Positions 1 to 45,646 of a stretch of DNA of 64,000 bases are shown piece by piece; within the stretch, counting starts at the first letter, position 1, and each line of letters opens with the position of its first letter. The translations under genes and the position numbers were made by a program. This stretch comes from Candidatus Omnitrophota bacterium (GTDB lineage: Bacteria > Omnitrophota > Gorgyraeia > Zapsychrales > JAKLDJ01): assembly GCA_022703585.1 (NCBI GenBank), contig JAKLDJ010000002.1, forward strand, positions 91,413 to 155,412. Reading direction: 5' to 3'. The notes beneath the pieces were generated by a model, which was given only the letters and a program-made list of their open reading frames with translations, ran no database searches and had not been told where the DNA came from.

Positions 1-14
1 TTACGCTTGGGACT

Positions 15-205
15 ATAAATAAAAAAGCCGATAAAGATTGGGGCTCATCACCCCGTTCACTTCGGCAACCCAGCCACCATATTGTCAGTAACCACGCCTA
101 TCGGCGAGTATCGCCCAACCGCTTGGGGGGCCTTTTGGGTTTTAGACAACTTAGGTCTGTAGGCTTTGCGTCCCCGGCTTTCACCGGGTTTACCTTTATC
201 GGCTA
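15..205 (-). ncRNA. Candidate c-di-GMP-I (GEMM) riboswitch leader with expression platform and terminator-like end
   Basis: The minus-strand sequence 5'-AGCCGATAAAG-GGTAAACC-CCCGGT-GAAA-GCCGGG-GACGCAAAGCC (forward ~203-162) has the same length and layout as the Vibrio Vc2 aptamer core GGCAAACC-CCAUUC-GAAA-GAGUGG-GACGCAAAGCC. It has a 6-bp stem with a GNRA tetraloop followed by the invariant GACGCAAAGC. An outer 11-bp helix pairs forward 26-36 with 194-204 and is followed at once by a TTTTTTATTTAT run on the minus strand. A near-repeat of the 5' arm (cGCCGATAgg) lies in the enclosed region, which allows alternative pairing. Confidence 0.5.
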
Positions 206-210
206 ATTAA

Positions 211-239
211 AATATAGCATACATTTAGCCTGTTGGCAA
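211..239 (-). promoter_or_regulatory. Sigma70-like promoter on the minus strand (TTGCCA-N17-TATATT) driving the riboswitch leader
   Basis: The minus strand reads cTTGCCAacaggctaaatgtatgcTATATTtta. The -35 lies at forward 234-239 and the -10 at 211-216, with an exact 17-nt spacer. The predicted TSS is ~203, the start of the P1-like helix. Confidence 0.45.
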
Positions 240-295
240 GGTAACGAGAGGCAGGATGCGGGCGGGTTTTAAGCGATACGCCTTAGGGTAATGAA

Positions 296-2023
296 CTACG
301 GAGTTTTCTTGCCCATCTTCTTTTGTCTTATGTCCTGCAGAAAATTCTTAATAAATAGAGCCCTGTCGTCTGTTTTGTTCTCCAGCCCAAGGCCAACCAA
401 GAGCCCTGTCAGAATTTCCTCGGCCCTGTCATATTCTTTGATTTGATTATACAATACGGCTAATTGAATACAGTCTCCCGCCTCTCTTTTTTCCTGGCGC
501 TTAATCAAATCTTCAAATTCTCGCGCAGCATCCCGAATCATGCCTTTGTTAAGATAGCTTGTGGCAAGCTTGCGTTTTAAATTCAGAAAAATAGCATCCT
601 GGTATTTTCTTGTCACGCCTTCCTTTAAAGAACGAGGACTTGATGCCACGGCGCTTTGATATTCTGAAATAGCCAAATCCCACGAACCTTCAAGGTAATA
701 GCAATCACCCAGGCCCTCACGGATCCTGGCCACCCCGGGTTCAAACCGTGCCGACCTTTTAAAAATAGCTAAATCACTTTTCCAGAACGGCTGATAGGAC
801 AATGTGGTCCCAAAAAGAGGCAGAATAATCAACGCGCATACTCCTGAATAAAACCATCGGTCACGGTTATCTTTGTTTAAGAAAGATATGCGTTCCTTAA
901 CTCTGAGCAGAACAGCCGCAGTAAATATACTAAAACCGATCGACGGAAAATAAAGAAAGTGATCCGAAACGACAAGCGTTGCCCCCTCCAAATAAAGAGG
1001 CAAAACCAAAGGAAGCGTAGGAAAAAGCGTAATGATAAACCACAGCCATCCGAAACAAAGAACGCGGTCTATTTTCTTAAATACTAAGGTTAAAAGAATC
1101 AACAGCGGCCAAAGCAAAAGATACGCCACCGCCGATAAATTAAAATGAAACTGCAAGAGTTCTTGGGCCCGGAAATAATGCAAGTCAAAGGGAAACAGCA
1201 TAATTCTAAGATAGCCCAAAAAAAGCTTTGATGACGTCAAAAACCTTTCCGGAAAAACTTCCGTATGCACATTCCACGAATATCCTAATTTCAGATAATA
1301 AATCCTGAAACAAAAAAACACCAGGACAACTATTAACAAGCCACCGTACAACAACAGATTTTCCCGAACAATTTTAAAGACATTCCTCTTTTGAGCGCAG
1401 AGAACATCGTAGGCGAAAATAAGAAACGGCAAGATAATGGAACTTTCCTTACTCAAAAGCGCAAATGCATACAAAAACAGAATCATCCCCACGGCGGGCC
1501 ATTTTACGCTGCCTGTCCGAATACCATTTTGGAAAAGTAGCAGAGCTGAAAGAATAAAGACCGCACTTAAGCTCGCAATAACACAACTGACCATGCATAC
1601 TGTTTCAACCTGGACAGGATGCACTAAGAATATCATGGCCGCCAGAAGGGCGTATTTCCTGTCTGGAATAATTCGAGAAGAAAACAAGTAAACTAAAATA
1701 GCAACAGTAATATGCATGAGCAGGCTTATAAGATTCCATCCGGCCGAATTCTCCCCGAAAAGAAGACATTCCGATAGGTACGCTACAATCCCTAGCGGGC
1801 GGTAGTATTCCGCGACCCCTATAGACGTCCCGATACTCTCAGGATACCGCGGCAGAAAATACCCCGCGAGCTGATGAAAAGACTTAATGGCACTGACTTC
1901 AGCTAAATTCGGAACACTATCAAGGATAAAAGGGAAAGAAAGTGATGCAGTATATAGTGTTAATCCGAGCGCAACAAGAACGGCGGAAGCAGCAAGAAGA
2001 TGATGAACCCCTCGGCGGCTCAT
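296..2023 (-). CDS. Polytopic membrane protein, GT-C fold (PMT_2/GT39/ArnT-like) glycosyltransferase family, with C-terminal TPR-like region
   Basis: 575 aa. About 12 hydrophobic segments occupy the first ~400 aa. The cytoplasmic/periplasmic tail has TPR-like repeats (YQSAV..., AVLYNQIKEYDRAEE). Confidence 0.55.
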   Translation of the reverse strand: MSRRGVHHLLAASAVLVALGLTLYTASLSFPFILDSVPNLAEVSAIKSFHQLAGYFLPRYPESIGTSIGVAEYYRPLGIVAYLSECLLFGENSAGWNLISLLMHITVAILVYLFSSRIIPDRKYALLAAMIFLVHPVQVETVCMVSCVIASLSAVFILSALLLFQNGIRTGSVKWPAVGMILFLYAFALLSKESSIILPFLIFAYDVLCAQKRNVFKIVRENLLLYGGLLIVVLVFFCFRIYYLKLGYSWNVHTEVFPERFLTSSKLFLGYLRIMLFPFDLHYFRAQELLQFHFNLSAVAYLLLWPLLILLTLVFKKIDRVLCFGWLWFIITLFPTLPLVLPLYLEGATLVVSDHFLYFPSIGFSIFTAAVLLRVKERISFLNKDNRDRWFYSGVCALIILPLFGTTLSYQPFWKSDLAIFKRSARFEPGVARIREGLGDCYYLEGSWDLAISEYQSAVASSPRSLKEGVTRKYQDAIFLNLKRKLATSYLNKGMIRDAAREFEDLIKRQEKREAGDCIQLAVLYNQIKEYDRAEEILTGLLVGLGLENKTDDRALFIKNFLQDIRQKKMGKKTP

Positions 2024-2110
2024 TTTTCCCAGCTCCCAAAGGAACAGGAATATTCTTTCATAAACACAATTCTCTCGATAGGGATTTCAATATTTCAAGA
2101 ACTAGAAAAA

Positions 2111-2782
2111 TCAGAATTTTAAGAACTTCTCCCAGTACTTATACAGTTCTTTAGTGGCCCTAACATCCCCGAGGCAATACCGGGCGATATCCTGATAGCG
2201 GCCTTCTTTAAATAGGTCTTTAACCTGCAAACCGCTGATTCCGTCTTGTTTGGGGCTTTTGATATTAAAGGCATTGCACCACATATGCAGGCTGAATTTC
2301 CTGCGCATCGCGTCGTAAAAGGTCAGCTGATCGCTTAAATCGATATGCTCGGCATGAGAATAGCGATAGGGCACAAGATTCCTGATCGGCTTGATTTTGT
2401 TCATCGCCGAACGCAGCATCACAAACGGGCCGTCGAATGTCCGGCCGTTAAACGTCACAAACTGGGTATAATTTCGCATGTGTACCCAGAAATTAGTCAA
2501 AATATCCTGTTCGTTGCCGGAGATAAAAACAACATCCCCGTCGATAAATTTCTCCGGTTTGGCCCCGCCATTCTGATAATAGACGAAACCCTTATCCGTC
2601 TCCGCCTCCAGCATGGCAATGGTAACGATCTGGGCAGTAAGAGGATAAAAACTTAAAGAGTTCTTCGCCTCTTCTTTTTCTTCCTCATTTTCGGCGAATC
2701 TTAAGAAATATTCTTTGGACGTCTCGTCCAAGAGCTCAAAATCCTGCCCCACGGTTTCGATATCAAAGATTACTTTAGCCAC
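2111..2782 (-). CDS. Predicted 3'-5' exonuclease, RNase H-like fold related to the PolB exonuclease domain (YprB-like)
   Basis: 223 aa. N-terminal VIFDIETVG (Exo I, DxE) and FNGRTFDGPF (Exo II-like) motifs. Size and motif order fit the stand-alone DNA_pol_B_exo2-type exonucleases. Confidence 0.55.
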   Translation of the reverse strand: MAKVIFDIETVGQDFELLDETSKEYFLRFAENEEEKEEAKNSLSFYPLTAQIVTIAMLEAETDKGFVYYQNGGAKPEKFIDGDVVFISGNEQDILTNFWVHMRNYTQFVTFNGRTFDGPFVMLRSAMNKIKPIRNLVPYRYSHAEHIDLSDQLTFYDAMRRKFSLHMWCNAFNIKSPKQDGISGLQVKDLFKEGRYQDIARYCLGDVRATKELYKYWEKFLKF

Positions 2783-2810
2783 AGACTATCCCTCCTATTA
2801 TTTCTGCCGC

Positions 2811-3437
2811 TCAAACGCCGGCACGAGCCTTTACTAAGAATTCTACCAATAATTTTTCATCCTTCTTGCCCGGAACGCTTTCCACGCCCGAGGAAACATC
2901 CACCGCGTAGGGCTTTACCGTTGTTATCGCCGCGGCGATATTTTCCGCGCAAAGGCCGCCGGACAAAATAACAGGTTTGCTTAACTTTTTGCCCGCAATA
3001 ATTTCCCAATTAAAAGTCTTGCCGCTGCCGCCGTACACGTTTTCCTGGTGCGCATCAAACAAATACGCACATACCGGATATTGTGAAAGGCCGCTTATGT
3101 CAAATTTATCATGCACCCGAAAGGCCTTGATCACTTTGTAGGATTTGAATCGCTGGCAGTACTGCGGAGTTTCATCGCCGTGAAATTGCAGGGTATTAAG
3201 ACCGCAGAATTCGGCGATATCCCTGACCGCCCCCTCTTTTTGGTCAACAAAAACTCCCACCGGTGTTACAAAAGGCGGTAGGATCTGGATAATACGCTGT
3301 GCCTTCGACGGTGAGACAAACCGCGGGCTTTTTTTATAAAAAATAAATCCTAACGCCCACACCCCCAATGACGCCGCCAGCAGGGCATCTTCCGTGTTGG
3401 TTATTCCGCAAATCTTCGTCTTGACATTATTTTCCAT
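2811..3437 (-). CDS. trpF: Phosphoribosylanthranilate isomerase
   Basis: 208 aa. KICGIT...GFIF and QFHGDE motifs. Follows trpC in operon order. Confidence 0.9.
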   Translation of the reverse strand: MENNVKTKICGITNTEDALLAASLGVWALGFIFYKKSPRFVSPSKAQRIIQILPPFVTPVGVFVDQKEGAVRDIAEFCGLNTLQFHGDETPQYCQRFKSYKVIKAFRVHDKFDISGLSQYPVCAYLFDAHQENVYGGSGKTFNWEIIAGKKLSKPVILSGGLCAENIAAAITTVKPYAVDVSSGVESVPGKKDEKLLVEFLVKARAGV

Positions 3438-4215
3438 GCATCACTTCCCTTATCTTGGCCGACATATTCTCGGCACGTAAAAAAGTTTCTCCGATTAAAA
3501 CCGCATGTACCCCTAAATCCTGTAACACCTTTACTTCCTCATGACTTTTAATGCCGCTTTCAGAAACAATGATTCTGTCTTTGGGAATCATCGGAATCAG
3601 TTTGCGACTGATATCAAAATTAACCGTCAATGTACGTAAATTGCGGTTGTTAACGCCGATGATCTCGGCACCGCATTTAAGCGCCCTTTTTAATTCAGCC
3701 TCATTGTGGACTTCAACCAGGCAATCAACGTCCAGTTTAGCGGCCCTGTCGATAAGGCGCCTAAGTGTCTCGTTGTCTAAAAGCGCAACAATTAGAAGAA
3801 TGGCGCTGGCGCCAAAATAAAACGCCTCGTAAATTTGAACCTCATCGATAAAGAAATCTTTTGCCAGCACAGGAATCTTAAAATGCTCACTGACCTGGCG
3901 CATATAGGGAACTTTTCCTAGAAAGAATTTTTCCTCGGTTAAAACCGAAATAGCCGACGCCCCGGCCTCAAGGTAAGTTGCGGCAATCCTATTAATATTA
4001 AAATCCTTGCAGATAATCCCTTGAGATGGCGAGGCTTTCTTGATTTCCGCGATAAGATTAACCTGGCCCGGCTGCGTAATCGCCTGCTTAAAAATCCGGT
4101 AGCGGGAGAGCTTGTCGTCTTTGATTTTCTTCTTCAAGGATTCGAAAAAAGCCTTCTTTTCCTTAAGAAGGCTTTGCTTGTGCTTTAGGATTTTATTAAG
4201 AAAATCAGCCGGCAC
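3427..4215 (-). CDS. trpC: Indole-3-glycerol phosphate synthase
   Basis: 262 aa. IAEIKKASPSQG and other IGPS motifs. Overlaps trpD and trpF ends. Confidence 0.9.
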   Translation of the reverse strand: MPADFLNKILKHKQSLLKEKKAFFESLKKKIKDDKLSRYRIFKQAITQPGQVNLIAEIKKASPSQGIICKDFNINRIAATYLEAGASAISVLTEEKFFLGKVPYMRQVSEHFKIPVLAKDFFIDEVQIYEAFYFGASAILLIVALLDNETLRRLIDRAAKLDVDCLVEVHNEAELKRALKCGAEIIGVNNRNLRTLTVNFDISRKLIPMIPKDRIIVSESGIKSHEEVKVLQDLGVHAVLIGETFLRAENMSAKIREVMHGK

Positions 4216-5218
4216 GGTTTGTAAACTCTCTTAACAGGGTTAACTTCTTCGCCGCCTTGCCCGAGTCAATGGATTCTTCAGCTATTTTTATACCGTCAGC
4301 GACCGTCGTTACGGCCTGAGTAACATACAAAGCACAGGCGGCATTCAAGACAACAATATCGCGCTGGGGTCCTTTTTGGCCGCTCAATACATCCTTGGCA
4401 ATCCGGACATTCCTATTCAAGTCTCCGCCTTTAAGGTCTTCGCTTTTGGAAATAGCAATACCGAATTCTTCCGGCGAGAGAGGATACGACGACACTTCAT
4501 TGCCGTCGTATTCGCTGATAAAGGTCGCCCCCGTTGTCGTTACCTCATCTAAACCGTCATGTCCGTGAACCACCATGGCGCGCTTGATCCCTAAATTCTT
4601 TAAAACATACGCGATCGGCTCAACCAGCCCTTTATCGTAAATACCCATCATTTGATGCGTGGCCGAAGCCGGATTGGTTAACGGCCCTAAGATATTAAAG
4701 ATTGTTTCAACGCCCAGCTCTTTACGTACCGGCCCGGCATATTTCATGGCCGGATGCAGGTTCGGGGCAAACAAAAAAGCGATACCGACTTTATCCAGGC
4801 ATGTACCTAATTTTTGAGCATCCAGGCTTAAGTTTATCCCCAAGGCCTCCAGAAGATCGGCGCTGCCGCAGCTGCTGGAAACAGACCGGTTGCCGTGTTT
4901 GGCAACGGCCACCCCGGCACCGGCAATAACAAACGCCGCCACCGTCGATATATTAAACGTGCCCTTTTTATCGCCGCCCGTGCCGCAAGTATCCAAGACA
5001 ACTTCATGATTTGTTTTTACCTTGAGACAATACTCCCTCATGACTTTGGCGGCGCCGGTTATCTCCTCAACGGTCGAGCCCTTGGCGCGCAAGGCCAACA
5101 AAAAAGAAGCAATATCTTCTTTAAGCGCCTGGCCGGACATAATCGTCCGCATGACCTGCTGAATTTCTTCTTGGGTCAGGTTTTTCTTATCTTTGATTTT
5201 CGCGATAGCGGATTTCAT
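4205..5218 (-). CDS. trpD: Anthranilate phosphoribosyltransferase
   Basis: 337 aa. VLDTCGTGGDKKGTFNIST motif. Confidence 0.9.
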   Translation of the reverse strand: MKSAIAKIKDKKNLTQEEIQQVMRTIMSGQALKEDIASFLLALRAKGSTVEEITGAAKVMREYCLKVKTNHEVVLDTCGTGGDKKGTFNISTVAAFVIAGAGVAVAKHGNRSVSSSCGSADLLEALGINLSLDAQKLGTCLDKVGIAFLFAPNLHPAMKYAGPVRKELGVETIFNILGPLTNPASATHQMMGIYDKGLVEPIAYVLKNLGIKRAMVVHGHDGLDEVTTTGATFISEYDGNEVSSYPLSPEEFGIAISKSEDLKGGDLNRNVRIAKDVLSGQKGPQRDIVVLNAACALYVTQAVTTVADGIKIAEESIDSGKAAKKLTLLREFTNRAG

Positions 5219-5245
5219 ATTTTGAGATGAATAGAATCTTTTTGT

Positions 5246-5314
5246 GCGGGGGGCGGCCCTCGATGTTTTCCAATCGCCCTTGGGCGATAGACCAACGGGT
5301 CGGGCCGCCCCCTC
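5246..5314 (-). other. Intercistronic pure-GC hairpin (11-bp G/C stem GGGGGCGGCCC/GGGCCGCCCCC) with nested hairpin ATCGCCC-TTG-GGCGAT, between trpG and trpD
   Basis: Read directly from the sequence. Stem arms are at 5248-5259 and 5302-5312; the inner palindrome is at 5273-5288. There is no U-tract after it on the minus strand, so it is not a canonical intrinsic terminator. Confidence 0.5.
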
Positions 5315-5321
5315 CCAGAAC

Positions 5322-5888
5322 TTAGCGTAAAGCTAAGAAATTACTCAAAATATCTTTACCGGACTTAGTTAAAATCGACTCCGGATGAAACTGGACACCC
5401 CAAAGGGGAAACTTCTTATGCTTGACCCCCATAATCTCTTTATCATTCGTCCAGGCCGTTAATTCCAAGCATTCGGGAAGATTTCTTGGGTCAATGACCA
5501 GAGAATGGTAACGGGTCGCTTCAAAAGGATTTTCGACCGACTTAAATATTCCTTTTTTATTGTGGTAAATTTTCGATGTCTTCCCGTGCATCAACCTCTT
5601 GGCTTGGATAATCTTTCCCCCGAAGGCATAGCCGATCGCCTGATGCCCCAGGCAGACACCTAAAATCGGCAATTGAGCGGACAATTCGCGAATCAGCGAA
5701 ACGGAAATTCCCGCATCCTCGGGCCGTCCCGGCCCCGGGGAAATAAGGATCTTGTCGGGCTTGAGTTTCTTAATCTGCTCAAGCGTAATTTTATCGTTAC
5801 GGTAAACCTTGAGCTGCGCGCCCAATTCCCCTAAATACTGGACGAGGTTATAGGTAAACGAATCATAATTATCGATAACGAGAATCAT
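5322..5888 (-). CDS. trpG: Anthranilate synthase component II / glutamine amidotransferase (TrpG/PabA type)
   Basis: 188 aa. MILVIDNYDSFTYNLVQYL, catalytic GVCLGHQ and the H-P-E triad region. Confidence 0.85.
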   Translation of the reverse strand: MILVIDNYDSFTYNLVQYLGELGAQLKVYRNDKITLEQIKKLKPDKILISPGPGRPEDAGISVSLIRELSAQLPILGVCLGHQAIGYAFGGKIIQAKRLMHGKTSKIYHNKKGIFKSVENPFEATRYHSLVIDPRNLPECLELTAWTNDKEIMGVKHKKFPLWGVQFHPESILTKSGKDILSNFLALR

Positions 5889-11300: not shown

Positions 11301-12694
11301 TTCTGATATAATTCCTCGTATTCTTTGGCTGATTTGTCCCAGGAAAAATCACACTTAAAAGCCCTTTGGATCAATTTTCTAAATTGCTTCTTATCTTTAT
11401 GAATCTTCATAGCCAGCTGGATGGTCTTTATCAGGGCCTCCTTTTTATAATCTTCAAAAACAAAACCGTTACCCTTATTTTTGGGCCCGTCAAAGGACAC
11501 AATAGTATCCGCCAGGCCGCCGGTCTTAAAAACGAGCGGAATCGTCCCGTACTTGAGGCTGATCATCTGACTCAAGCCGCAAGGTTCATAGGTAGACGGC
11601 ATTAAGAAAACGTCGCTACCTGCATAGATCTGATGCGCGATTCTTTCGTTAAACTCCAGAAAACTGGCAATCTTCTTCGGATACATATAGGCGATCTCTT
11701 CTAAAATCCTGCGATAGCGTTCATCGCCCGTCCCTAAAAACACCATTTGCACGTCCAGCTTGGCAATCTTGGTAATGGATTTTATGACCAGGTCTAAACC
11801 CTTCTGCGTCGATAAGCGCCCAACGAAACCAAAAAGAGTCACATCCGCGCGTAACGGCAATTTTGAGATCTGCTGGAGCCTAATCTTGTTGGCCGCCTTA
11901 TCTTCAATATTCTCCGGAGAATATTTCTTGGCAATACTGCTATCCGTTTTGGGATCCCAGAGAGCATAGTCGATGCCATTTAAGATGCCGACTACGGGTG
12001 TCTTTTGCTGCTTTAAGACACCTTCCAATCCGCAGCCAAATTCATAGGTTTGAATTTCTTTGGCATAACGTTTACTGACAGTCGTGACCATATCGCTAAA
12101 GGCAATCCCGCCTTTCAGCAAATTGACCAACTCGTAGAATTCAAAACCATTAATGCCGTAAAGTTCCTCGGGAAGGCCGAGCTTAGGATATTCTTCTTTT
12201 TCAAACAATCCCTGAAAGGCCAGGTTATGAATCGTCAAAATCGATTTTACATCTTTAAAGAACGGGTCATTACGATACAACGACTTAAGATAAGCCGGAA
12301 TCAAAGCCGCTTGCCAATCATGGCAGTGGATAATATCGAATTTAAGATTATTCTCCTTTATAAATGCCAGCCCTTTACGGCAATAATACGCGAACCGGTC
12401 AAGATTATCTTCATAATCGCCGCTCTTGTCTCCGTAGAGGCCGTCACGGCCATAGAGGGCATCATTTTCGACAAAATAGACCTCAATATTCCGCCCGATT
12501 TTAGTTTTAAAAATACCGCCGCCAAGATTATTTAAATTAAATCTTTCCCTGTCAACACACTTGTACAGCGGCAACATGATAGAAACTTCTATCCCCCTTT
12601 TTTCCAGCGCTAACGGTAACGTCCCGCAAACATCGCCCAAACCCCCTGTTTGCGCGAACGGGCCGACTTCAGAGGAACAAAAAAGGATCCTCAT
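11282..12694 (-). CDS. glgA: Glycogen synthase (ADP-glucose type, GT5)
   Basis: 470 aa. MRILFCSSEVGPFAQTGGLGDV N-terminus with the KTGGL motif. Confidence 0.9.
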   Translation of the reverse strand: MRILFCSSEVGPFAQTGGLGDVCGTLPLALEKRGIEVSIMLPLYKCVDRERFNLNNLGGGIFKTKIGRNIEVYFVENDALYGRDGLYGDKSGDYEDNLDRFAYYCRKGLAFIKENNLKFDIIHCHDWQAALIPAYLKSLYRNDPFFKDVKSILTIHNLAFQGLFEKEEYPKLGLPEELYGINGFEFYELVNLLKGGIAFSDMVTTVSKRYAKEIQTYEFGCGLEGVLKQQKTPVVGILNGIDYALWDPKTDSSIAKKYSPENIEDKAANKIRLQQISKLPLRADVTLFGFVGRLSTQKGLDLVIKSITKIAKLDVQMVFLGTGDERYRRILEEIAYMYPKKIASFLEFNERIAHQIYAGSDVFLMPSTYEPCGLSQMISLKYGTIPLVFKTGGLADTIVSFDGPKNKGNGFVFEDYKKEALIKTIQLAMKIHKDKKQFRKLIQRAFKCDFSWDKSAKEYEELYQKCLSSV

Positions 12695-43867: not shown

Positions 43868-45646
43868 TTATTTCTTATTTGCCGGTACGGTATCTTGAGC
43901 ATCAAGAATACTCAATACTTGTGCCGCTGTTGTTTCTTTGCCGGCACCAAATATCTCCACGTTATCAATAAGAAACAACGGGCCGTAAGAAATATTCATC
44001 TCCTCGGAAAATTTAATCCTTTCCGCCAGCAATTTAGTCCCTTCTTCACCCCGGGCACAATCTTTTATCTTTTTAACATCCATGCCATTGCTCTCCAAGC
44101 AATCTTCCCACCACAGGCTATCAATATTATCCGTGCGGCAAGTAAGATAATCCCGGCTTTTTTCGGGATAGGACGCATCCACACAGGCATAGATTTTGTC
44201 TTCAATTGTTTCCCGGATACCGCCGGGGCTTACGATCTCGTCGGTCTCCGGGTTTTTAGCCCCGACCAGGCGCAAGGTAAATTTTGTTTTGTCTTTTTTC
44301 TGATCCATAATTTCCCTGGCAACCTTAAGAACAGCCGGGGTATCCGGGTGAGACAAAACAATAAATAAATCCAGTTGGCCCGGCTGGGGTGCGCGATTGA
44401 TAAAATAAGAGACACCGGAAAACGACGGTTTTAAATAATACCGGTCCCCGATGAGATCGGCAATCTGGCTAAACCGGGAGAAATTCGGATCTTTTTCCAC
44501 CTGCCGGGAAAGCACGTAGGCGGGAAGCATCTCTACTTTAAATTCATCGATCATTTTCTTAGCTTCGGGATCGTCCGCCGTTAACGATTGCACCTCTAAG
44601 CCCGGAAAGATACTTTTGAGCCCTGCGACCACATAATCCGTCTTGCAGGTGCGGCATTTTTTGGGAACAATCATTGTCATTTTAACATTAACCGCTTCCT
44701 GGAATACGCAGCTGGCAATCTTCTCGCCCGGATTCTGACAAGCCGAACGCACCCCCGGACGCGCACAGTCTTTATCAGAATAACAACGGGGCAGAAGATT
44801 GTTAATCTCGGCATCATCTTCGACGCGATTATCAAGTGCTATTTCCTCAATTGAAGAATGAACGATTGTTCCGTTCTCCAGGCTCAGATTAAGCTTCGCT
44901 AATTCTTTTGCCCCCGACGGCAAAGTCACAATCAAGGTTTCGCCGGTCTTTTCAGATTCCTTGCCTTCCTGCTCCGCGGTCAAATCGATCATAACATTAA
45001 TCCCCGGAATTTGACCGGCTATGATTTTATCTTTCTGCCGGCCAAACGAACTTAAAACAATAATCAAATCGGCTTTTTTGTCTTTCAATTCATTGACGGC
45101 ATTCTTAATGCCCTCAAAGGGATCAGCCGTAAAGGGATCCTGGCCCGGCTGGGTCACGCCGATGACACCGACAGTCAAGTTGCCCGCCTTTTTCTTCAAG
45201 TACGGGCGGGCTCCTTTGATTTTAGTATTGCAAGAAAGAAAAGTTAAATCCATCTTTGAAATCACTTCTTCTAAAAATTTATCACCAAAATTATATTCAT
45301 CCTGCCCGATAACCAGGGCATCGTAATCCATCATTTCCAAGCTTTTCAGATAAACCAGCGTACGTGAAGCATCCAGATTTTGTTCGACTCGATTGATGTC
45401 TTGTTGGGCACCGGCAAAAGAGCTGCCCCCTTCGATCAAGAGGAGATCAGGAAAATCCTTGCGGAGCTGCTTAATCTTTCCCGCTCGACGGGAAACACCG
45501 CCTAAGGGCCCAGCCCCTTCATTAGCCGGATATAGCGCAGCACGCGATCCCGCCGTATAGATAACGGTAATATTTTCAGCATAGGCGCATTGAGAGAAAA
45601 AAGTAATCGCCAATAACAACGTGATAGAAAAAAACCATTTTTTCAT
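43868..45646 (-). CDS. Secreted multidomain protein: degenerate 5'-nucleotidase/metallophosphatase-like domain + Cys-rich linker + DsbA-like thioredoxin-fold C-domain
   Basis: 592 aa. Signal peptide. The N-terminal domain aligns with UshA-type 5'-nucleotidase blocks, but metal ligands are replaced: TAGSR in place of the Asp/His-containing metal-binding block I, IEGGSS for the conserved Asp of block II, GQDEY for GNHE, TAEQ for GHSH. The middle has CxxxxC/CxxC clusters. The C-terminus has a DsbA-like ending (YGPLFLIDN..FGA). Confidence 0.5.
   Translation of the reverse strand: MKKWFFSITLLLAITFFSQCAYAENITVIYTAGSRAALYPANEGAGPLGGVSRRAGKIKQLRKDFPDLLLIEGGSSFAGAQQDINRVEQNLDASRTLVYLKSLEMMDYDALVIGQDEYNFGDKFLEEVISKMDLTFLSCNTKIKGARPYLKKKAGNLTVGVIGVTQPGQDPFTADPFEGIKNAVNELKDKKADLIIVLSSFGRQKDKIIAGQIPGINVMIDLTAEQEGKESEKTGETLIVTLPSGAKELAKLNLSLENGTIVHSSIEEIALDNRVEDDAEINNLLPRCYSDKDCARPGVRSACQNPGEKIASCVFQEAVNVKMTMIVPKKCRTCKTDYVVAGLKSIFPGLEVQSLTADDPEAKKMIDEFKVEMLPAYVLSRQVEKDPNFSRFSQIADLIGDRYYLKPSFSGVSYFINRAPQPGQLDLFIVLSHPDTPAVLKVAREIMDQKKDKTKFTLRLVGAKNPETDEIVSPGGIRETIEDKIYACVDASYPEKSRDYLTCRTDNIDSLWWEDCLESNGMDVKKIKDCARGEEGTKLLAERIKFSEEMNISYGPLFLIDNVEIFGAGKETTAAQVLSILDAQDTVPANKK

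Follow-up and report, generated by a model that had tools for sequence, protein, structure and literature searches.

The prototype of the class-I riboswitches for cyclic di-guanosine monophosphate (c-di-GMP), which Rfam models as RF01051 (c-di-GMP-I, or GEMM-I), is the Vc2 RNA of Vibrio cholerae. In Vc2, A47 intercalates between both guanines of the ligand. G20 pairs with one of these guanines and C92 with the other, and the ligand also contacts the A47 phosphate (PMC5888326). The merRNA of Bdellovibrio bacteriovorus carries a GEMM-I aptamer in a non-coding RNA, apparently without a regulated open reading frame (ORF), and has been proposed to act as a store or sponge for c-di-GMP (PMC3627812). 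V. cholerae also makes small RNAs that contain Vc2 in their 3' part and whose abundance depends on c-di-GMP binding (bioRxiv 10.1101/617340). In the Bc1 RNA of the Bacillus cereus group, a first terminator (T1) unfolds with c-di-GMP, a second terminator (T2) persists, and downstream genes do not respond (PMC11218506). Here we describe a GEMM-I RNA from a Candidatus Omnitrophota bacterium, encoded on the minus strand at the edge of a 64-kb stretch of contig JAKLDJ010000002.1 (positions 91,413 to 155,412; hereafter the window). Coordinates are those of the window and refer to its minus strand, and L001 is the parent contig read past coordinate 1.

The segment 239..1 (-), together with about 40 nucleotides (nt) past coordinate 1, has the sequence features of a compact c-di-GMP-sensing small-RNA transcription unit rather than those of an mRNA leader, a reading to which we give an even chance. 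As in Bc1, the GEMM-I aptamer is followed by two putative rho-independent terminators a few tens of nucleotides apart, and the behaviour described for Bc1 matches what we would predict for this RNA (PMC11218506). T1 of Bc1 is reportedly a local hairpin that comes after the aptamer, whereas here it would be a helix that closes the whole aptamer; in addition, Bc1 resides in a long 5' untranslated region with a ribosome-binding site and belongs to a different phylum. The likeness to merRNA is drawn on the aptamer: in both cases a GEMM-I aptamer lies within a non-coding RNA, a predicted one here, that seems to have no downstream ORF under its control. However, merRNA is 445 nt long with the aptamer as only one part of it, is reported only from Bdellovibrio, and has measured, massive expression. 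The Vc2-containing small RNAs likewise hold a GEMM-I aptamer, but their 3' ends arise from protection against degradation rather than from termination, and their aptamer also controls tfoY.

RF01051 matches the window at 204..61 (-) over the full model (positions 1-87) with 66.3 bits, where the gathering score is 35, and the E-value is 4e-12 when the first 3 kb are searched and 9e-11 when the whole window is searched. It is the sole Rfam family to reach threshold within the 64 kb; RF01786 (c-di-GMP-II) gave no match at E up to 10 in positions 1-3000 and none at gathering score window-wide. A sub-threshold match to RT-17 at 157..243 (25 bits versus 40.4, E 0.08) was taken as noise. These searches bear out an initial annotation of the window, made from the sequence and its ORFs without database searches, which had proposed a complete c-di-GMP-I aptamer on the minus strand and named both covariance models as the way to check it. 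That annotation had also described core blocks that mirror Vc2. The 33-nt core, GGTAAACCCGGTGAAAGCCGGGGACGCAAAGCC, is indeed present at 194..162 (-), although its hyphenated blocks share two C's and a U replaces the C of Vc2 at position 22.

Transferring the Vc2 numbering through the Rfam models makes position 204 A10, 201-200 C13 and G14, 194 G20, and 65-63 C92, C93 and G94. In the RF01051 alignment the ligand-contacting nucleotides G20, A47 and C92 are G194, A167 and C65, and C92 is followed by the 3' strand of the proximal P1 helix, C93 and G94 at 64 and 63 (63..65 in the RF01051 and RF03167 alignments). The P2 hairpin CCCGGU-GAAA-GCCGGG (173..188) carries a GAAA tetraloop at 182..179 and shows compensatory changes in relatives. 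Within P3, CCUAAG (150..155) and UAUGG (77..81) form what we take to be the two halves of the 11-nt GAAA-tetraloop receptor. The RNA shares with Vc2 the full-length model match, the P2 tetraloop with its 11-nt P3 receptor, the G20/A47/C92 triad, and the capacity to form the proximal pairs G14-C93 and C13-G94. It differs from Vc2 in a P3 arm that carries a branched extension of 58 nt, in an additional hairpin after the aptamer, and in a platform that has neither Shine-Dalgarno sequence nor start codon. It further differs in an invariant distal complement to the P1 5' strand, J1/2 and G20, which allows an alternative helix around the whole aptamer. The RNA at 204..61 is, by these sequence features, a canonical class-I c-di-GMP aptamer, and its predicted ligand is c-di-GMP because both G20 and C92 are present; cyclic GMP-AMP (cGAMP) would require A20.

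Relatives were collected in two ways. One genome per species was searched with an alignment of the zinc-ribbon protein encoded directly past coordinate 1, yielding 27 loci, all in Omnitrophota-type metagenome-assembled genomes (MAGs). Rfam finds a GEMM-I aptamer upstream and on the same strand in 9 of these 27 loci, and two further members with large insertions, L002 and L023, were located by motif. A metagenome scan with a pattern made of the aptamer core alone, and so without bias towards the sequences flanking it, returned 120 loci, of which 13 belong to the same subfamily and were confirmed with Rfam. The family comprises 25 distinct members plus one outgroup, L075. Counting only zinc-ribbon loci whose upstream sequence extends for 1 kb or more, this one included, the RNA is present at 12 of 23, and a motif search for diverged copies in the remaining zinc-ribbon loci gave isolated chance matches at most. 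G20 and C92 are kept in 25/25 members, and A47 is conserved, reading A in all relatives. The P2 and P3 helices covary, with double changes in 15 of 42 pairs (RNAalifold, 10 relatives), and the GAAA tetraloop and its CCUAAG/UAUGG receptor are part of the shared anatomy.

The aptamer is preceded by a sigma-70 promoter, TTGCCA-17-TATATT with a TG extension, at 239..211 (-). The promoter scan places the -35 hexamer TTGCCA at 234..239 and the extended -10 element TGcTATATT at 211..219. A -35 element TTGnnn and a -10 element TATAnT are found in 25/25 members, 18 of which also have the TG extension, and the distance from the end of the -10 element to the 5' arm of the RNA is 6-8 nt in every member. 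Because this register is fixed throughout the family, the transcription start is very probably the initial base of AGCCGAUAAAG, which is A204 here. This 5' arm (194..204) spans A10 to G20, including the P1 5' strand C13 G14, J1/2 and G20, and is near-invariant in the 25 members. The promoter had been correctly placed directly before the aptamer in the initial annotation.

The 5' arm has a distant partner. The sequence AGCCGATAAAG (204..194) matches the reverse complement of CTTTATCGGCT (36..26) exactly, and this 11-mer has just two exact copies within the window, which are the two arms. The 3' arm, CUUUAUCGGCU in the RNA (26..36), therefore can pair with the first 11 nt as their complement, in a helix that wraps the entire aptamer. 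The long-range helix is present in the minimum-free-energy fold and in the RNAalifold structure, as had been proposed from the letters alone. Both arms are near-invariant, and helix positions 2-11 are paired in 24/25 members. Compensatory changes occur from G-C to A-U in L118, from A-U to G-C in L148, and from G-C to U-A in L075. In the covariation analysis, 93% of cells are paired, compensatory changes fall at two positions, and the observed score is attained in 3 of 500 shuffles. Across 99 distinct GEMM-I loci of the metagenome scan, a complement of at least 9 nt to the 5' strand is nearly restricted to this subfamily.

The enclosing helix pairs A10 through G20, which includes the P1 5' strand, J1/2 and the ligand-contacting G20. 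In the ligand-bound aptamer, J1/2 with G20 lines the pocket and the pairs G14-C93 and C13-G94 make up the closing helix (PMC11705072, a nuclear magnetic resonance study; Rfam model structure). Since the pocket needs the A10-G20 strand, the helix state and the ligand-bound state would be mutually exclusive, and the helix should compete with binding. The proximal CG/CG of P1 is kept in 21/25 members and mismatched in 3/25, and its retention in 21/25 argues that the canonical bound state is under selection too. In ViennaRNA the helix state is more stable, by 9.8 kcal/mol, than the best structure that leaves the 5' arm free. By our own estimate, this difference is similar in magnitude to the binding energy of a picomolar-to-nanomolar ligand present at micromolar concentration.

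The 3' arm runs directly into a U-run, UUUUUAUUUAU (15..25; DNA TTTTTATTTAT), and helix and U-run together make up the predicted terminator T1. The U-run at 25..15 had been pointed out in the initial annotation, and a U-rich run directly after the 3' arm recurs in 19/25 members. A second predicted terminator, T2, consists of UCCCAAGCGUAAGCGAGGGA followed by U7 at L001 12012-12042 (dG -10.8 kcal/mol); it straddles coordinate 1, so that the 5' half of its hairpin occupies 1..12 of the window and the remainder continues beyond. A separate hairpin with U-run lies 25-70 nt further in 19/25 members. Both T1 and T2 are found in 13/25 members and at least one of them in all, and at this locus tandem terminator-like elements are predicted to follow the aptamer. 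The 5' side of T2 opens with similar sequence in distant members, UCCCAAC, and in the window, UCCCAAG (12..1), in a comparison of the tails after the 3' arm of L053, L063, L118, L126, L144 and L148; in L126 the T2 hairpin is broken up by an insertion. This similarity suggests that T2 may belong to the RNA itself instead of being a generic terminator.

We propose that the first 11 nt of a transcript started at about A204 choose between two mutually exclusive partners. With c-di-GMP bound, they would form the pocket and the short proximal P1 (G14-C93, C13-G94). In the ligand-free RNA they would pair with CUUUAUCGGCU just before the U-run, giving T1 and a short RNA, about 190 nt long, with both of its ends clamped. 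We infer the direction of the switch to be such that ligand binding suppresses T1, in which case the RNA would extend by about 35 nt to T2 and its 3' arm and U-run would be single-stranded. Most likely, the output lies in how much of the RNA is made or which conformation it takes, through c-di-GMP buffering or a function in trans, rather than in translation of a downstream gene. We place the output in the RNA itself because T2 follows and because the next gene appears to have a leaderless-type promoter of its own.

This next gene is a conserved zinc-ribbon ORF of 100-103 residues at L001 12121/12130-12432, on the same strand as the RNA. A box TGGTATAAT occupies L001 12114-12122, the ATG is at 12130, and there is no Shine-Dalgarno sequence. 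The same arrangement, a near-perfect extended -10 box (TGnTATAAT) 7-10 nt before the ATG without Shine-Dalgarno, is found at 11 of 13 zinc-ribbon loci and at 4 of 6 loci with a GH1 beta-glucosidase gene, which is the downstream neighbour in another branch of the family. At four of the 11 zinc-ribbon loci, the box lies 17 nt before the ATG chosen by our script and 8 nt before an upstream in-frame ATG. The box is present also at loci that have no RNA. Its position next to the ATG and the missing Shine-Dalgarno sequence suggest that the zinc-ribbon and GH1 mRNAs are of a conserved leaderless type in Omnitrophota, with predicted promoters of their own. A read-through transcript from the RNA promoter would leave the zinc-ribbon ATG internal and without a ribosome-binding site. 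Besides L001, the loci with such a box next to the ATG include L002, L004, L006, L015, L016, L021, L024, L026, L063, L126, L140 and L148, and within the window one other long ORF, near 44674 (-), has the same arrangement.

The company that the RNA keeps is not constant. Seven members, which have short P3 arms, precede the GH1 gene and others precede unrelated genes. Downstream genes vary between clades, and at least five different contexts are seen. The RNA is nevertheless co-oriented with the downstream gene in every locus, an arrangement that would also suit a leader.

The most direct alternative to a small RNA with its own switch is indeed a classical cis-acting leader, in which c-di-GMP-controlled read-through of T1 and a leaky T2 would set transcription of the zinc-ribbon gene and the M20 gene that overlaps it. 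Such a leader would account for an RNA that sits 120-130 nt upstream of a conserved gene on the same strand, precedes that gene in 12 loci and always points towards its neighbour, and the 3' arm follows an anti-aptamer logic such as expression platforms typically have. Two members, L003 and L007, also fit it, having no T2 and a zinc-ribbon gene with a Shine-Dalgarno-like sequence. However, T2 follows the RNA here and in 19/25 loci, while the zinc-ribbon gene has its own conserved TGnTATAAT box and no Shine-Dalgarno sequence, also in genomes without the RNA. The RNA is missing from about half of the zinc-ribbon loci, other members precede the unrelated GH1 gene with the same promoter arrangement, and in Bc1 the dual terminator blocked the response of downstream genes (PMC11218506). 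We consider a leader role rather unlikely. The initial annotation, which had the riboswitch controlling a gene past coordinate 1, was right to expect a minus-strand gene there, the zinc-ribbon ORF, but two terminator-like elements and a separate promoter box make the regulatory link doubtful, and its reading of the RNA as a leader is probably wrong. Less likely still is a constitutively terminated, stable RNA that does not switch at all, in which the helix would be a mere end clamp and the RNA a buffer or sponge for c-di-GMP as proposed for merRNA (PMC3627812). Near-invariant arms, one precisely at the predicted 5' end and the other just ahead of the U-run, would be expected of such an RNA, strongly expressed RNA genes typically end in tandem terminators, and the proximal P1 is weak and mismatched in 3/25 members. 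Its difficulty lies in the inner half of the helix, which pairs J1/2 and G20, both needed free for the ligand: a built-in competitor would be useless to a pure sponge. The proximal CG kept in 21/25 members also speaks against it.

Very improbable, in our judgement, is that the RNA binds a different ligand (3'3'-cGAMP or another, as do GEMM-Ib or the GGC/UAU variants) or that it is a decaying relic. Several relatives do score slightly higher with RF03167 than with RF01051, but the window sequence scores best with RF01051, position 20 is G and not A, position 47 is A and not G, and C92 is present in all members; strong conservation over 25 loci, with compensatory changes, is at odds with decay. 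We rejected the c-di-GMP-I-GGC variant (RF03167) for this RNA on the ground that the window reads GCAAAG against a model consensus of GCGAA, with A at position 47, which on our reading of that consensus is presumably the variant-defining column. A GEMM-Ib riboswitch for 3'3'-cGAMP was rejected as well: such riboswitches reportedly carry A at position 20, whereas position 194 is G here and its equivalent is G in 25/25 members. Rfam clan competition assigns RF03167 to L018, L020, L032, L088, L108, L140 and L148, with scores just above the gathering score of 59. In L018, the member whose alignment was checked, A rather than G stands at the RF03167 column where the model has G, and automatic annotation could mislabel such members as variant riboswitches.

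Several points count against the proposal of a c-di-GMP-switched small RNA. The start site, T1, T2 and the promoter of the downstream gene are all predicted features, and at L003 and L007, which lack T2 and have the Shine-Dalgarno-like sequence, regulation in cis is plausible. The proximal P1 is 2-3 base pairs long; as it is so short, and mismatched in 3/25 members, the outer five pairs of the helix could persist when ligand is bound, and T1 might then be constitutive. An intrinsic terminator stem that encloses about 150 nt would be unusual, and we know of no tested example. A search of the window for sequences like the 5' arm found no target in trans: three one-mismatch matches were obtained against 1.9 expected, and all lie in mid-ORF. 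Finally, no GGDEF, EAL or PilZ gene was found in the 85 kb examined, that is, the window and a 21.7-kb stretch of the parent contig. A crude motif scan of the window ORFs for GGDEF, EAL, HD-GYP and PilZ produced a single chance EAL-like string, in agreement with what had been noted for the window at the outset, and Pfam labels on the parent-contig stretch include no GGDEF, EAL, HD-GYP or PilZ.

Other parts of the RNA are more variable than its arms. The 58-nt insertion in the P3 loop relative to RF01051 (86..143) is a clade-specific extension, which in single-sequence folds of most close relatives takes the form of a three-way junction bearing two hairpins and whose sequence is poorly conserved. 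Within it lies a second copy of the 5' arm, which the initial annotation had offered as an alternative pairing partner. The copy cGCCGATAgg does exist at 106..97, but that pairing is not conserved in any relative, and we rejected it, as the inner copy GCCGAUAGG (106..97) falls in the variable extension and folds into a small hairpin of its own. Folds also predict a small G/C hairpin, P4 (GGGGUGAUGAGCCCC, 40..54), that separates the aptamer from the 3' arm and is present in the closest relatives with variable loops.

Some members depart further from the common form. L002 (1287-1603), L023 (2262-2483) and L005 (1924-2230) encode RNAs of 222-317 nt, enlarged by long insertions that fall within P2, within J2/3 or downstream of the aptamer. 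Their arms are kept, with one A·C mismatch in L023. With Rfam, L002 and L023 fall under the gathering score and L005 is barely over it at 36 bits. In L118 (2923-3113, minus strand), a duplicated or inserted segment follows the 5' arm, and a second GGTAAAC-like stretch lies about 55 nt downstream; it is to this second copy that Rfam aligns the aptamer. The outgroup L075, from a metagenome and another lineage, has two tandem GEMM-I aptamers at 210-301 and 375-466. The second of these shows the same kind of complementarity between 5' strand and distal sequence (UCCGAUAAAG / CUUUAUCGGA), including its compensatory G-C to U-A change, and is followed by a Shine-Dalgarno sequence and ATG in place of the U-run, where a hairpin could mask the start codon.

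Upstream of the RNA, the gene at 296-2023 (-) encodes a 575-residue protein whose Pfam matches are to TPR families alone, at the C-terminus; for the long, hydrophobic N-terminal portion, Pfam gives no match at E <= 0.001. The initial annotation had called it a TPR/GT-C membrane glycosyltransferase gene. Pfam supports the TPR part but not GT-C, and the adjacency to the RNA is not conserved: relatives carry trpF or an exonuclease gene upstream of the RNA. On L001, the RNA is followed in order by genes for the zinc-ribbon protein, an overlapping M20 protein of the ArgE/DapE family, a YdjM-like membrane protein and a DUF3108 protein, and then by trpB and trpA. For the zinc-ribbon protein, Pfam gives a weak match to Zn_ribbon_3 only and NCBIfam gives no match. 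It has 13 homologues, the few with a source name being Omnitrophota or Auribacterota MAGs. An AlphaFold model of a 93%-identical homologue (predicted local distance difference test score, pLDDT, 80.6) has no Foldseek match in the PDB at E <= 0.001. The surrounding trp operon is split, with trpG-trpD-trpC-trpF at window 2811-5888 and trpB-trpA at L001 14869-16838. Between trpF and trpB lie the exonuclease, the TPR membrane protein, the RNA, the zinc-ribbon protein, the M20 deacylase, the YdjM-like protein and the DUF3108 protein, and in some relatives the RNA comes directly after trpF.

The aptamer itself is ordinary and would be flagged by any Rfam-based annotation; what makes the RNA of interest is the architecture of its subfamily. 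Here the 5' end of the transcript would be the switching strand, a helix around the whole aptamer abuts a U-run, a second predicted terminator follows, and the neighbours appear to have promoters of their own. In the literature we found no description of a terminator or clamp helix around an entire aptamer with a 5'-terminal switching strand, and full-text searches on Omnitrophota and riboswitches returned nothing relevant, in a library of incomplete coverage. The invariant arms provide a sequence tag, AGCCGAUAAAGGU...CUUUAUCGGCU, with which the family can be found in metagenomes and metatranscriptomes.

Tentatively, and at somewhat less than even chances, we extend the proposal to the phylum. 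Omnitrophota, and perhaps related uncultured bacteria, may possess a dedicated small-RNA gene in which a c-di-GMP aptamer is fully wrapped by its own terminator or clamp helix. The messenger would select between a short closed form and a longer open form that exposes the invariant 11-nt strand and the U-run, and the RNA would act in trans or by buffering rather than as a leader. If this is correct, the RNA would be a compact addition, of about 190 nt, to the few c-di-GMP riboswitches known as or within small RNAs (merRNA, the Vc2 small RNAs and Bc1). It would also give the merRNA idea a second case, independent of the first and from a phylum of host-dependent nanobacteria, and would offer a first handle on c-di-GMP signalling in the uncultured Omnitrophota.

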